A stretch of DNA of 45,233 nucleotides, from the sequence record OR594180; one strand, given 5' to 3'. A program made the translations under genes and the position numbers. This DNA is from Escherichia phage vB_EcoM_SHAK7693. The notes beneath the pieces were generated by a model. That model was not told the DNA's origin. It saw only the letters and a list, made by a program, of their open reading frames with translations, and ran no database searches. Below are positions 14,463-42,953 of this stretch, piece after piece (position 1 is the first letter of the stretch; each line of letters opens with the position of its first letter).

Positions 14463-14879
14463 ATGAAACTTTCTGATTTTTATTACGAAGCTGAGGCAGA
14501 AAAAGGCGCCCGTATGCCGATACCACTGAAAGACGGCACCGATTCAGGGGAGTGGCTGAACGTTGTTTCACCGGAGGCAGACGTTGCCGTTAAAGCTATG
14601 AGGGCGTTTACACTTGCGTACCGCGCGGCATTAGGTAAATTGAAACCGCTTCGCGATAAATGCGAGGAACTGAAAGATTTCTCGGAATACAACCTGAAGA
14701 TGGAAGACGCGGCCACGGACCTTAACCGACAGTTAGCAATTGAATTGGTTAACGGGTGGAGCCTGGACGACGAATTCAATAAAGAGAATCTGAACACACT
14801 CCTGACGCAATATAAACGACTCGCGGAACTTGTTGTTGTGTTTCATAACGAACAACTGCGCCAGTTACAGGAAAAGTAG
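14463..14879 (+). CDS. tail assembly chaperone (G-like)
   Basis: Acidic 138 aa protein immediately before tape measure with overlapping -1 frame ORF. Confidence 0.6.
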   Translation: MKLSDFYYEAEAEKGARMPIPLKDGTDSGEWLNVVSPEADVAVKAMRAFTLAYRAALGKLKPLRDKCEELKDFSEYNLKMEDAATDLNRQLAIELVNGWSLDDEFNKENLNTLLTQYKRLAELVVVFHNEQLRQLQEK

Positions 14880-15244
14880 ACGCGTTGCTCCAGTTCGCCC
14901 GTTGGAACTTCATAACCCGCCACAAACGGCGGGAATTTGACAGTATCGCCGACGGGCATAAAGCCGCGCTAATTGCTATGGGGGTTATGCAAGACGCGCC
15001 GGAAGCAACGCAGGACACCGGGCCGGAATGTCCCCCTGAGCTATTAACCACCTTCGAGAAGTACCGGGAAATCAAATTTACCCGCCGAGTGGATGCCGAC
15101 GGCATCAAGATGTACCCGCGCGAACAGTTACGATGGTCGGATTTAGTGGCATACAGCACCGTTTCAGGCCAGAATATAGGCATGTTTGAATCTGACATCA
15201 TCATGAGCTTAGACGCTATTTTCGAGGGTAGAAACGATGGCTGA
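14849..15244 (+). CDS. tail chaperone -1 frameshift extension (T-like part)
   Basis: -1 frame open from 14849; ends overlapping tape measure start; candidate slip site GGAAAAG at 14870-14876. Confidence 0.45.
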   Translation, partial: RTTAPVTGKVDALLQFARWNFITRHKRREFDSIADGHKAALIAMGVMQDAPEATQDTGPECPPELLTTFEKYREIKFTRRVDADGIKMYPREQLRWSDLVAYSTVSGQNIGMFESDIIMSLDAIFEGRNDG

Positions 15245-39291: not shown

Positions 39292-39447
39292 ATGAGAGAA
39301 GCATTCGAACGGTGGGCCGTCGTCGAGGGTCTGCCCGTTAATAAGGGTTCGAAGAAAGAGTACCTGAACGTTAAGACGCGTCTCGCGTGGCGGGCGTGGA
39401 AAGCTGGTGTGTTGTCTGTTGTGTTGTCTGTTGCGAATCCGAGGTGA
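39292..39447 (+). CDS. hypothetical small protein (51 aa) containing 12-bp tandem duplication
   Basis: Hand-translated; GTGTTGTCTGTT x2 encodes VLSVVLSV. Confidence 0.35.
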   Translation: MREAFERWAVVEGLPVNKGSKKEYLNVKTRLAWRAWKAGVLSVVLSVANPR

Positions 39448-39450
39448 GAT

Positions 39451-39651
39451 ATGGGTAAGTGGATTAAGTGTAGTGGGATGCTGCCGGGCAATGGGTATAC
39501 GGATAAGGAGTTCCTGGTGTATGAAACGTTGAATAACGCAGTGCAGCACGATTATTACATCGTCCCTGATGATGTGAGAAAGCCTTTCTGGAATCACTAC
39601 GATAAGTTTGTTACCCACTGGGTGCCGTTACCCGAGCCGCCGGAAGTGTGA
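39451..39651 (+). CDS. DUF551-like protein
   Basis: C-terminal VTHWVPLPEPP motif. Confidence 0.45.
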   Translation: MGKWIKCSGMLPGNGYTDKEFLVYETLNNAVQHDYYIVPDDVRKPFWNHYDKFVTHWVPLPEPPEV

Positions 39652-39692
39652 TGTTATATTGTAACAATAGTTTGGGATTTTACTGAGTGACT

Positions 39693-39730
39693 TACGCTGC
39701 TACACAGCAGCGTATCATTTTTCTCATTTT
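39693..39730 (+). terminator. rho-independent terminator
   Basis: TACGCTGCT-ACAC-AGCAGCGTA then T-rich run. Confidence 0.55.
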
Positions 39731-39807
39731 TGTTCTATTTCACCAAACGCAACAATCGAAGCGACTATTGCAGGAGATGCAACAATACAAACACCAATAA
39801 AATTTAC

Positions 39808-39836
39808 TTGCACACTGGGATAGAATAGGCTACTAT
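39808..39836 (+). promoter_or_regulatory. class-A promoter (TTGCAC-N17-TACTATTCA)
   Basis: Conserved element. Confidence 0.5.
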
Positions 39837-39969
39837 TCATTTACACGAACGAGGGGGGAGACGGAATATGATTCCTGGGCATTAGGCGAACTGGTAGATG
39901 CTTACGAAATAATGGGTAGCACTTCGGTGCGCGACGGTGACACTAAAGCGATAAAAATGGGGGTTGAGG

Positions 39970-40416
39970 ATGAGTAACAAAAACGAGGTATTCGAGTACC
40001 TGATTGGCCAGTTACGGCAGCAGGTAAATGGCAACCAGTGCGAAGACCTGGCGCACGAGGTGTTGTCACTCAAGAATCAGTTACGTGATGCGTCAGAACA
40101 TATTAAGGAGTTGCATAAGGCGTTGGCTACAGCTACAGGTGACGTAGGCGCTTATATAGCAGCAGAGCAATCTGGTTGCCGTAAGGAAGATACTCAGTAC
40201 AACGCCTGGAGGCCTCATTATGGTGCACGACAACCTGTGCCGGATGGGACTATGGTATTTATCCGGTATCGCAACGGGGAGGAGCCGAAACACAGTGTAG
40301 CAGCAGAAAAGCGGTCGTGGATTTGGGATGGAACATACGCAGACATAGTGGAATACAAGATTGACACACAGGAATGCGAACACGAGTGGTATTGGTATAA
40401 CAGGTGGGTTAAATAA
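39970..40416 (+). CDS. hypothetical protein, paralog family member 1
   Basis: Shares CRKEDTQ and TQECEHEW motifs with 40879-41238. Confidence 0.45.
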   Translation: MSNKNEVFEYLIGQLRQQVNGNQCEDLAHEVLSLKNQLRDASEHIKELHKALATATGDVGAYIAAEQSGCRKEDTQYNAWRPHYGARQPVPDGTMVFIRYRNGEEPKHSVAAEKRSWIWDGTYADIVEYKIDTQECEHEWYWYNRWVK

Positions 40417-40617
40417 ATGACCTCACTACTTTTCATCTGGGCACTGACCGCGGGCCAGTTACAGCTAGCGGCAACAGAAACGTTTTACTCACTGGAGGCG
40501 TGCCAGGCTGCGGCACGCAACGCAGAGAACGCGCACTTCCTGTTTCAGGATAAGCCGATTGATACTGAGGTGCGCGCGACATGTTCAACGAAACGATTAG
40601 CTAAGCAGGAGAAATAA
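40417..40617 (+). CDS. small protein with N-terminal hydrophobic signal-like segment
   Basis: MTSLLFIWALTAGQLQLAA hydrophobic N-terminus. Confidence 0.4.
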   Translation: MTSLLFIWALTAGQLQLAATETFYSLEACQAAARNAENAHFLFQDKPIDTEVRATCSTKRLAKQEK

Positions 40618-40618
40618 G

Positions 40619-40882
40619 ATGGTACAGAGATACGAGATAATAAGATGGGGTCTGCCGGAGATGGCTAAGTACCCATACGGTGACTACGTTGAGTATGATA
40701 GCTATAAGGAACTGGAAGACAGTTTCCAGGACTACATAACGACTACGGACATGGAAATAGAAGGGCTTGCGGCGAGACTGGCGGAAGTAAACGCCGAGTT
40801 ACAGAAATACAAAGACCAGTTCCCGGATTACGTCGAGTGCGCGAACTGTGGGTCAGTTACTCATGTGGAAGGGGTGGAATGA
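40619..40882 (+). CDS. hypothetical protein, paralog family member 2
   Basis: MVQRYE N-terminus and ELQKYKDQ motif shared with member 3. Confidence 0.45.
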   Translation: MVQRYEIIRWGLPEMAKYPYGDYVEYDSYKELEDSFQDYITTTDMEIEGLAARLAEVNAELQKYKDQFPDYVECANCGSVTHVEGVE

Positions 40883-41238
40883 TGGTACAGAAATACGAGG
40901 TTCGCGGTACCGAATTAGGTGGCGATGCATTCTACGAAGATTGGGTTGAGGTAGTTCGCTACGAAGATTACGCGAAACTCGAAGCCGAGCTACAGAAATA
41001 TAAAGACCAGTTACGCGATTCTTCGGTACAGATTAAGGAGATGCAGAAAGATATAGATGAGTTGCAGCGAGAGGTGCAACATAAGACCGAAGCACTAGAC
41101 TACCTTTACGCAAACCAGGTATCGCCAGGGCAATCCGTTTGCCGTAAAAACGATACCCAGGAATGTGCGCACGAGTGGAGTAGGTACATTGTACACCCCT
41201 ATAGAAAGATATGCTTGGTATGCGGAGTGAAGGAGTGA
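40879..41238 (+). CDS. hypothetical protein, paralog family member 3
   Basis: MVQKYE, ELQKYKDQ, CRKNDTQECAHEW; C-terminal CxxC. Confidence 0.45.
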   Translation: MMVQKYEVRGTELGGDAFYEDWVEVVRYEDYAKLEAELQKYKDQLRDSSVQIKEMQKDIDELQREVQHKTEALDYLYANQVSPGQSVCRKNDTQECAHEWSRYIVHPYRKICLVCGVKE

Positions 41239-41402
41239 CGTTAGCAACTGACATCCTGAAACACAGCGGCAAAGCGCCGCTGTCACCACGTAAAAGACAT
41301 TTCAACACGCATCCGACGTATCTTGAATTGCATGAGTGCCGGAAGACACCCGCACAACGACTGGCTGAATATTGGAGAAAGCATGACTACTATCGCATTT
41401 GA
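41235..41402 (+). CDS. hypothetical small protein (55 aa)
   Basis: GTG start with RBS GAAGGAG, GTGA overlap. Confidence 0.3.
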   Translation: MTLATDILKHSGKAPLSPRKRHFNTHPTYLELHECRKTPAQRLAEYWRKHDYYRI

Positions 41403-41823
41403 CGGTAAGACTATGGCCTGTGATACCCGGGTTACGTGCGGAAGCAGTTACTATAATACCGACACTAAGATATACGAGAATGATTTTTATATTATCGGAG
41501 TAGCCGGTGACGCGGGTGTCGGAACTATGCTCGTAGACTGCCCGTATATCCTCCAGGCCAGACATTATGACTTCGATTTCGAAGCCCTGGTGTTTGCTAA
41601 AGACACGCGGAAACTGTATAAAGTCGCGTTCTATAAATCGTGGGATTGCACTCTTAGTTCAGTTATCCTCGTCGCCGACAAATTCTCTGCCGTTGGGTCT
41701 GGTTCTCCGTACGCTCTGGCCGCCATGTATTTAGGTAATACCGCTACACACGCTGTTATGGTAGCGGCGGAGTTCGACACGAACACAGGCGGCAAGATTA
41801 TTACCAAACCATTATTCGGATAA
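41383..41823 (+). CDS. HslV/proteasome-like Ntn-hydrolase protease
   Basis: N-terminal M-TTI (Thr1 nucleophile after Met removal), conserved Lys ~33, GSGSPYALAA motif; alignment to E. coli HslV done by eye from memory. Confidence 0.6.
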   Translation: MTTIAFDGKTMACDTRVTCGSSYYNTDTKIYENDFYIIGVAGDAGVGTMLVDCPYILQARHYDFDFEALVFAKDTRKLYKVAFYKSWDCTLSSVILVADKFSAVGSGSPYALAAMYLGNTATHAVMVAAEFDTNTGGKIITKPLFG

Positions 41824-42191: not shown

Positions 42192-42456
42192 GTTATTCTG
42201 GTTCGGTGGTATGCTGGCAATCGGAGGCGCATCGCTGTTTAATGTGTATCACCCCCGCGTGGACGACGGACTATTTGGCCGGGTGCTCTATATCCTGACT
42301 GCTATTGTCTGCGCCGCCGGAGGCATTCACCTGTTACAGGGCAGCATGTCGCCCACGTTGCCTGAGACCTTAATCACATTAGTTGCGCTGCGTCAGATTC
42401 GTCAGGCGTGGCTATCATATGGAGGATATAAGCGTGTCTCGAAACATTTCCGATAA
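42184..42456 (+). CDS. second lysis-cassette membrane protein (holin/antiholin-like)
   Basis: Two hydrophobic helices; RBS GGAGG; overlaps holin stop. Confidence 0.45.
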   Translation: MNELFWFGGMLAIGGASLFNVYHPRVDDGLFGRVLYILTAIVCAAGGIHLLQGSMSPTLPETLITLVALRQIRQAWLSYGGYKRVSKHFR

Positions 42457-42953
42457 TGGCTTACATTTCTGCGCCGCGTTCGAGGGATTCCGCGGAATTG
42501 CGTATCGTGCTACGCCGAATGAGAAGTACCTGACTATTGGGTACGGTCACTATGGGCCGGACGTAACACCAGGTAAGACCATCACCCCTGGCCAAGGCCT
42601 CCTGTTACTGAATCGCGATAGGCCAAGGCCTCCTGTTACTGAATCGCGATATGGCTAAGGCCGTAGCTGCGGTTGATGCAGCAGCACACCATTCGCTGAC
42701 ACAGGCGCAGTTCGACGCCGTGTGTGACCTGGTCTATAACGCCGGTGCAGGTGTGATTGCAGCTACTACTGGCACGGGTAAGGCGCTGCGTTCCGGTGAT
42801 GTTGCGACGCTACGGGCTAAACTGGCGCTGTTTATCAACCAGAACGGCAAACCGCTACTCGGCTTGCGCCGTCGTACAGCGGGTCGTCTGGCGCTGTACG
42901 ACGGTAAACCATGGCGGGAGGCAGAGGCTATTGGGCGCGCGGTGAAAGGTTGA
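42419..42953 (+). pseudogene. endolysin (GH24 lysozyme) interrupted by a 31-bp tandem duplication
   Basis: N-terminal ORF has EG..AY...TIGYGH; C-terminal ORF has QFDAV..L.YN.G lysozyme motifs; frames differ by +1 at duplication. Confidence 0.7.
42590..42651. repeat. perfect 31-bp tandem direct duplication
   Basis: GGCCAAGGCCTCCTGTTACTGAATCGCGATA at 42590-42620 and again at 42621-42651. Confidence 0.9.

Follow-up and report, generated by a model that had tools for sequence, protein, structure and literature searches.

The window analysed here, a stretch of 45,233 nt from Escherichia phage vB_EcoM_SHAK7693 (sequence record OR594180), carries on its plus strand, in a series of small genes that immediately precedes the lysis genes, a unit of four small genes named A, M, C and D (Table 1). 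Homology, mosaicism, purifying selection and recent patch exchange are demonstrated at this locus, where heads, helices and terminal modules are exchanged in frame. Taken as a whole, the account of structure and evolution, in which A, C and D count as expressed, selected accessory members of two adjacent hypervariable small-protein families that recombine with each other, is likely to be right. An original prediction had read the three genes, whose open reading frames (ORFs) all exist as described, as tandem paralogues produced by recent duplication and recombination. The recombination is borne out by the data below; recent duplication is not, and paralogy holds only for the links that run through D, the ORF lying between A and C (gene M, phrog_3766) being no paralogue.

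Protein similarity was scored by the Smith-Waterman method against 2000 shuffles. Genes A and D score 71 (29.9 +/- 5.3 after shuffling) and genes C and D 67 (28.8 +/- 5.3), values equalled by none of the 2000 shuffles. The score of A and C is 28 against 27.6 for shuffled sequences, a chance level at which no direct relationship is detected. Pairwise alignment, the check proposed for the blocks said to be shared among these genes, is thus significant for A-D and C-D and not for A-C; since A and C are unlike while each resembles D, D is their sole link. The A-D signal is more than coiled-coil composition, because the non-helical C-terminal block alone (A66-148 against D80-119) scores 57 versus 22.4 +/- 4.2, again with 0/2000 shuffles equal. 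BLASTP aligns A27-76 with D34-94, A130-143 with D90-103 and C1-70 with D2-47. The predicted motifs are also in place, namely the heads MVQRYE in C and MVQKYE in D, the ELQKYKDQ block at C61-68 and D37-44, and the CRK(E/N)DTQ and DTQEC blocks in A (split, A70-76 and A131-139) and D (contiguous, D89-101).

The matches to PHROG families divide in the same way. Gene A fits phrog_6094 over residues 1-76 (E 7.2e-39) and gene C fits phrog_29624 over residues 54-87 (E 3.8e-20). Gene D matches both, phrog_6094 over residues 29-119 (E 2.7e-19) and phrog_29624 over residues 25-47 (E 1.6e-8), a split that makes it a hybrid of two families. From its N-terminus D comprises the MVQKYE head, ELQKYKDQ, an A-type helix, CRKNDTQECAHEW as one contiguous motif (D89-101) and a C-H-CxxC zinc-ribbon motif; judging from its homologues, translation more probably begins at its second ATG, 40882.

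At the DNA level, the ELQKYKDQ block of C and D has a core with 27 of 29 nt identical (40793-40821 and 40984-41012), extending to 49 nt at 80%. The near identity predicted for this block therefore holds, with its second coordinate (40981-41015) about 3 nt out of register. The gene starts (40618-40636 and 40881-40899) agree at 18 of 19 nt, likewise as predicted, and for both repeats 100 dinucleotide shuffles of the window gave 0 chance matches. Three more repeats, of 35-41 nt at 77-80%, join A and D (40078-40118/41008-41048, 40163-40197/41126-41160 and 40363-40397/41152-41186). Shared DNA is confined to islands of 19-49 nt at 77-95% identity, and the stretches between them are unalignable. The passage from C-type to A-type sequence in D, as read from the sequence, lies at 41005-41015 (AAAGACCAGTT followed by ACGCGAT), in the protein between K(D/N)Q and LRD, where the joined DNAs share AAAGACCAGTT / AAGAATCAGTT.

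Gene A differs from D in the arrangement of its C-terminal half. Its motif is interrupted, CRKEDTQ (A70-76) and DTQECEHEW (A131-139) being separated by 55 residues; the two DTQ triplets that flank these residues, and the contiguous motif of D, indicate that A carries an inserted domain. The C-terminus of A (...ECEHEWYWYNRWVK) keeps CEHEW (C-x-H), and the CxxC of most relatives is gone, an allele also found in Escherichia phage Ivi and in the database clusters P0071 and P0084. Gene D has the full set of putative ligands (C97-x-H99 ... C112-x2-C115), unlike A with its C-x-H only. Across >15 unrelated ribbon variants the spacing is held at C-x-H, 9-26 residues, C-x2-C, a pattern that suggests zinc binding, and isolated zinc-ribbon tails match phrog_6094 at E 2e-9 to 4e-25. 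In an AF2 (AlphaFold2) model built on the family alignment, A has helices at 4-67 and a confident beta domain at 80-130 (pLDDT, the predicted local distance difference test, 86-88). The AF2 model of D has a single 50-residue helix (28-78, pLDDT>90), followed through a flexible linker by a small hairpin (100-112, pLDDT ~73) with C-x-H...C-x2-C.

A megablast search with 39600-41500 matched 195 phage records, nearly all Escherichia or Salmonella phages of Guernseyvirinae, with Ivi as the top match (97.7% identity over 77% of the query); on these matches the window is a complete Kagunavirus (Guernseyvirinae) genome. By tblastn, A-type genes occur in 245 phage records, nearly all at one place each (247 places), whereas matches to full-length D are confined to Ivi (100%) and a distant one in AV104. 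In a large protein database the A query retrieved 1322 distinct 90% clusters, those listed being 96 to 257 amino acids (aa) long, and the D query 70 proteins. A-type relatives have a conserved head and core helix, optional extra helical segments, the linker EQSGCRKEDTQ, an optional beta domain and one to three zinc-ribbon motifs, each preceded by an RKEDTQ-like linker. C-type relatives have several MV(Q/R)xY head variants, variable helices, ELQKYKDQ and FPDYVECANCGSVTHVEG, and may end in the same GQSGCRKEDxQEC-H-W...CxxCG tail or in the beta domain.

Forty-four loci were compared: 40 viral contigs fetched with gene M as anchor, three annotated phages and the window. Their gene order is small ORF, A, M, 0-3 C-type genes, an optional HslV-like gene and holins; copy number among related phages, proposed earlier as a check, does vary. 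Among 36 distinct A proteins, 24 coarse architectures can be told apart; 5 of the proteins have no ribbon, 18 have one and 13 have two (database relatives have up to three), and 11 have a beta domain. The linker occurs 41 times in the related loci, the start MVQRY is common to 33 genes, and gene boundaries are conserved, with HVEGVE before the stop codon and MVQRYE at the start. The tail of D stands behind at least four different MVQRY heads (P0001-P0004). P0004 carries the head of gene C of the window, and in P0002 two gene starts are fused. In P0007 (locus L046) the same tail follows an A-type head at the A position of its genome, making at least five heads in all. Of the A-type proteins retrieved, P0007 also comes closest to this tail (65% identity over 72% of D), as against only 34% identity between D and the resident gene A over the aligned helix. 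Gene C in turn has a head like that of Snoke gp068 and a tail like that of Snoke gp067. Conserved segments with independently assorting variable flanks, as in the lpl-like tandem paralogues discussed below, are thus present.

Recent exchange is directly visible in identity profiles of the window against Ivi and Snoke, computed by sliding 30-nt bins. From 40160 to 41390 the window is 93-100% identical to Ivi per bin, mostly 100%. Immediately upstream lies a patch, listed in Table 1, that contains the allele of the upstream small ORF and the head and helix of gene A. Most of 39965-40160 is 93-100% identical to Snoke; the likeness to Snoke runs to 40385 and is lost thereafter. The right-hand crossover of the patch falls at the start of the conserved linker. 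This difference from Ivi, a 99-100% identical relative, is direct evidence of a recent patch exchange and, together with the reassortment of the tail of D, sustains the predicted recombination.

Selection was estimated across loci by the Nei-Gojobori method for the A head, core helix, M, C tail, linker, two ribbon variants and beta domain. The ratio of nonsynonymous to synonymous divergence (dN/dS) is 0.09-0.36 in every conserved module. For the linker it is 0.115 with dS 0.84, dS elsewhere being 0.3-0.9. Low dN/dS, open frames, kept ligands and kept start/stop overlaps indicate that A, C and D are functional, selected proteins; the high dS suggests that the linker is conserved as protein rather than as a DNA site.

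Table 1. Features of the A-M-C-D unit and its upstream flank in the window
Feature	Coordinates	Strand	Basis and remarks
DUF551 gene	39451-39651		PF04448, E 6e-8; upstream of the unit
Intrinsic terminator-like hairpin and T tract	39693-39714	+	Terminator scan; parts the DUF551 gene from the A-M-C-D unit
Recombination tract, ~300-bp patch unlike Ivi	39860-40160	+	Sliding identity profiles; unalignable or weakly similar
Small ORF overlapping the gene A start, remnant or short form	39912-39977	+	Translations; Snoke, fBC-Eco01 and Ivi annotations
Gene A, 148 aa, phrog_6094 family	39970-40416	+	Helical head/stalk, linker, beta domain, truncated zinc-ribbon motif
Linker EQSGCRKEDTQ (A66-76)	40165-40197	+	Marks the right-hand end of the patch exchanged relative to Ivi
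55-residue beta domain W..G..PVP..V.I.R.G...W....DIV.Y	40198-40362	+	Between the two DTQ triplets of gene A; phrog_9174/26870/16943
Gene M, 66 aa, phrog_3766 (E 1.7e-29)	40417-40617	+	Between A and C; conserved, non-mosaic
Gene C, 87 aa, phrog_29624 family	40619-40882	+	MVQRYE head, helix, ELQKYKDQ (C61-68), then FPDYVECANCGSVTHVEGVE
Direct repeat copy 1	40781-40829	+	ELQKYKDQ block of gene C
Gene D, 119 aa (118 if the start is 40882)	40879-41238	+	Inter-family hybrid
Direct repeat copy 2	40972-41020	+	ELQKYKDQ block of gene D

Five other explanations were weighed. A core role tied to position, for example in lysis timing or the regulation of late transcription, is unlikely. The genes do immediately precede those for holin, endolysin and spanin and share their strand, the terminator scan found no terminator between D and the lysis genes, and the layout of a helix plus a zinc finger occurs in transcription factors such as DksA/TraR and Ogr/Delta. 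Nevertheless a core regulator would not be hypervariable, as a locus with 24 architectures among 36 A proteins and 0-3 C-type genes is; the library scans gave no match to the DksA/TraR or Ogr families, and a reading of the sequences of A, C and D found no transmembrane segment.

Simple recent tandem duplication, in which one ancestral gene was copied twice here and the copies then diverged, would account for neighbouring genes with a common strand and translational coupling, and for their 27/29-nt block and 18/19-nt starts. It is quite unlikely, given that A and C are dissimilar, that identity is restricted to short islands with unalignable stretches between them, that the tail of D is nearer to the A allele P0007 of another phage than to the resident A, and that other loci combine these heads and tails differently. 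Ordinary synonymous divergence between phages (dS ~0.4) is enough to cover the two mismatches in the 29-nt repeat. Shared islands within the genome are no more similar than orthologous islands between phages, and nothing suggests a recent duplication within this genome.

The genes might also be non-functional debris, decaying fragments in a recombination hotspot free of selection, as could be thought from the truncated zinc-ribbon motif of A, the ORF upstream of A that lacks a start codon, the number of C-type genes (0 to 3) and the existence of truncated heads, such as that at 3119-3322 of L046. Against such decay, which we regard as very unlikely, frames are open in essentially all 44 loci despite constant rearrangement, the dN/dS values are those of constrained proteins, Cys/His ligands are kept over unrelated ribbon variants and start/stop overlaps are retained.

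Even less probable is that the islands owe their conservation to a role as DNA or RNA elements, such as dedicated sites of recombination or regulatory sequences, with coding incidental. Conserved islands do alternate with unalignable stretches, and the 14-nt core of the linker, CAATC(T/C)GGTTGCCG, is almost invariant, its Gln codon being always CAA. Yet dS in the linker is not below that elsewhere, dN is low, and the gene starts hold synonymous variants (GTA/GTG/GTT and AGA/AGG/CGG). That the junctions are kept up as DNA recombination sites, for which one recent crossover ending at the linker and its near-invariant core might speak, is likewise not supported with a linker dS of 0.84. Finally, chance or compositional likeness of coiled-coil-like sequences, for which many weak matches to unrelated coiled-coil families (Sos7, scaffold proteins, SMC-like) might speak, can be dismissed: 0/2000 shuffles equal the scores of A-D, C-D or the non-helical tail alone, the DNA repeats have zero chance expectation and the same motifs recur in hundreds of homologues.

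The account of two selected, inter-recombining families can be put in structural terms. Each protein would be built like beads on a string, with a family-specific head (MSNKNEVFEY... or MVQRYE...), a long helix, a short, conserved and charged junction (ELQKYKDQ or EQSGCRKEDTQEC-H-W) and small terminal modules. The long helices are probably oligomerising stalks, and the variable terminal modules would be C-H-CxxC zinc-ribbon motifs and/or the 55-residue beta domain. Diversity would arise from recombination within the protein-conserved junctions and gene boundaries, the partners being co-infecting relatives and neighbouring paralogues. Gene D would then combine the head of a C-type protein with the tail of an A-type one, fused at the microhomology between K(D/N)Q and LRD, and gene A of the window would unite a Snoke-like 5' part and an Ivi-like 3' end minus CxxC, with the beta domain inserted. 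As for function, the products may be cytoplasmic oligomeric adaptors whose swappable modules bind a factor of the host or of a rival phage, in a non-core role such as takeover, counter-defence or exclusion. A multivalent adaptor would explain both hypervariability and variable copy number; such an adaptor or host-interaction function, the latter also raised by the original prediction, is put forward tentatively, as a possibility suggested by the architecture. More doubtful is the further proposal that A-M-C-D of Guernseyvirinae is a combinatorial cassette in which recombination at a few protein-conserved junctions builds multivalent adaptors as effectors of counter-defence or inter-phage exclusion, with a repertoire tracking an arms race, and that, separately, the 55-residue W..GG.CPVP...DIVAYRV domain represents a large undescribed family of phage binding domains.

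Several points weigh against this account. The dN values are biased low, the segments having been chosen by protein patterns. If, as the linker dS suggests, the junctions are not kept as DNA sites, crossovers within them would be a by-product of protein conservation. Some relatives have Arg in place of the first linker Cys, and gene A of the window is without its CxxC half, which may mean that one or more of the 'modules' here are degenerate. The proposals of oligomerisation and zinc binding draw on helix length and ligand spacing only. Scans of Pfam, NCBIfam and PADLOC with the whole proteins and the isolated modules, and searches of the PDB, gave no relative above threshold. In addition, Kagunaviruses are reported to be highly sensitive to restriction-modification systems (PMC11990801), with which a strong anti-restriction activity would fit poorly.

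The closest described phenomenon is seen in the lpl cluster of S. aureus, whose tandem paralogues diversify as homologous recombination acts on a conserved region inside the genes (Tsuru & Kobayashi 2008, PMC2568036), and likewise in the T7SS (type VII secretion system) esaG immunity genes (bioRxiv 10.1101/2022.01.07.475358). These systems and the phage locus share adjacent paralogues on the same strand, short conserved ORF segments whose variable flanks are reshuffled between copies and genomes, conserved gene boundaries and a presumed role in host interaction. The phage case differs in that it concerns a virulent phage and very small proteins (60-260 aa), with several junctions in each gene, whole domains gained, lost or repeated, tails swapped between two head families that are not homologous, and junctions whose conservation appears to lie in the protein and not in the DNA (dS 0.84). 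General phage mosaicism is also close. In the classical modular theory, exchange occurs at conserved linker or boundary sequences. Here too conserved islands alternate with unrelated replacements, and patches are exchanged relative to Ivi and Snoke; the units, however, are sub-genic, in-frame protein modules and not whole genes or blocks.

No family of known function was matched by A, C, D or their modules in the library and profile searches. The families that they do match, phrog_6094 (A and D), phrog_29624 (C and D) and phrog_9174 (the insert of A), are all of 'unknown function', clustering products without described biology to which each window protein fits in part only, a sign of mosaicism. 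Literature on the PHROG identifiers and on the variable regions of Kagunavirus/Jerseyvirus gave no description of the A-M-C-D locus. Two known groups resemble the proteins superficially. Lar-like restriction alleviation proteins (PF14354/phrog_3592), which PHROGs classes under moron/host takeover, are small phage proteins with a CxxC-type zinc motif. Membership was rejected: phrog_3592 reaches E 0.005 on D23-67, helix only, PF14354 gives 14.5 bits against a cutoff of 28.6 over 17 residues of the tail of C, and whole A, C and D have no match at E<=1. The zinc hook of Rad50/SbcC/SMC also sets a long helix beside Cys motifs, with weak matches in the coiled coils of Rad50, LmuB, PbeC and JetC. Here too membership fails, with 15.4 bits for NF041034 against a cutoff of 1000, no ATPase head and a single AF2 helix in place of an antiparallel coil.

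The domain inserted in gene A extends well beyond this locus. Residues A73-135 match phrog_9174 at E 3.4e-6, and in the alignment W, G, PV, V, R, G, W, I and Y form invariant columns, as expected of a phrog_9174-type domain. At least three sequence variants occur among A-type relatives. A profile (A3) built from 14 domain sequences was searched against 1.84 billion proteins, with clusters at 50% identity, and retrieved 8172 cluster representatives at E<=1e-3, 1293 of them at E<=1e-10. The domain often occurs in 2-8 tandem copies, and in fusions that include an RHH domain and DUF6378. The top profile matches fit phrog_9174 at up to 1e-46; phrog_9174, phrog_26870 and phrog_16943 are all of 'unknown function'. 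In the BFVD, the domain superposes on many uncharacterised phage proteins (root mean square deviation 0.8-1.7 A). Pfam, NCBIfam and the PDB gave no match, Pfam having no hit at E<=10. A sequence-profile search of the PDB with the beta-domain and D-family profiles found nothing either, the best entry, Aca2 (E 0.57), sharing only the string 'W..G..PVPD'. Kinship with DUF551 (PF04448) was rejected, as hhalign of A3 against A4 gave a probability of 0.2%.

Gene M, which is unrelated to A, C and D, occurs in 40 loci at 75-95% identity with a dN/dS of 0.16. From its hydrophobic N-terminus (MTSLLFIWALTAGQLQLAA) and two cysteines, it may be a small exported protein. Upstream of gene A, relatives have a small ORF of 39-45 aa with at least two unrelated alleles, which overlaps the start of A by 8 nt. 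The homologous frame of the window is open from ~39801, has no ATG, GTG or TTG before 39912, and holds an ACG near the position where fBC-Eco01 starts Met-Gly-Trp. The terminator region is kept in 40/43 loci, and Snoke is annotated with a terminator at the homologous place. A mini-ORF at 39687-39800 that ends in ...LLQEMQQYKHQ (EMQQYKHQ at 39774-39800) was considered as the remnant of a fourth paralogue and rejected, being 74-78% identical over 23 nt to the ELQKYKDQ block; as it overlaps the conserved terminator-like hairpin, the likeness is probably due to chance and the mini-ORF probably non-coding.

Farther upstream, the DUF551 gene and its homologues in L002-L046 have near-invariant ends (MGEWIKCSERMPE... 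/ ...THWMPLPEPPEV) and a core that is wholly different between phages, a pattern matching that of A, C and D. A 12-nt tandem repeat (CTGTTGTGTTGT x2.5) lies at 39404-39433, at the 3' end of the small ORF 39292-39447. Downstream of D come genes for an HslV-like peptidase, two holins and an endolysin, with spanin genes also in the lysis group. The HslV-family peptidase-like gene (41383-41823; phrog_1040, E 4e-35, with a weak match to Pfam Proteasome) was detected in ~1/3 of the related loci. In the endolysin gene (~42434-42953, plus strand) a perfect 31-nt tandem duplication (GGCCAAGGCCTCCTGTTACTGAATCGCGATA x2, 42591-42652) shifts the frame and splits the gene into ORFs 42383-42658 and 42651-42953; the orthologue in Ivi is intact, with 167 aa. 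This duplication could be an assembly artefact or a real mutation of a lysis gene. In Escherichia phage NTEC3 (NC_073318.1, ~14709-15212) an A-type match overlaps an annotated homing endonuclease, a hint of visits to the locus by mobile endonucleases.

Mosaicism among tandem paralogues is familiar, as is the modular make-up of phages, and current understanding is not overturned by these data. They do expose a very widespread phage beta domain that is undescribed in the curated libraries tested (Pfam, NCBIfam and PADLOC), and they provide a compact natural case of very small proteins whose domains are shuffled in frame, at mappable breakpoints. For the biology of these phages, the unit is a hypervariable, selected locus in common, therapeutically used coliphages and Salmonella phages, and hence a natural candidate for determinants of host range, defence evasion or exclusion. 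Such phages would differ at this locus even with the rest of the genome near-identical, as the window and Ivi do.

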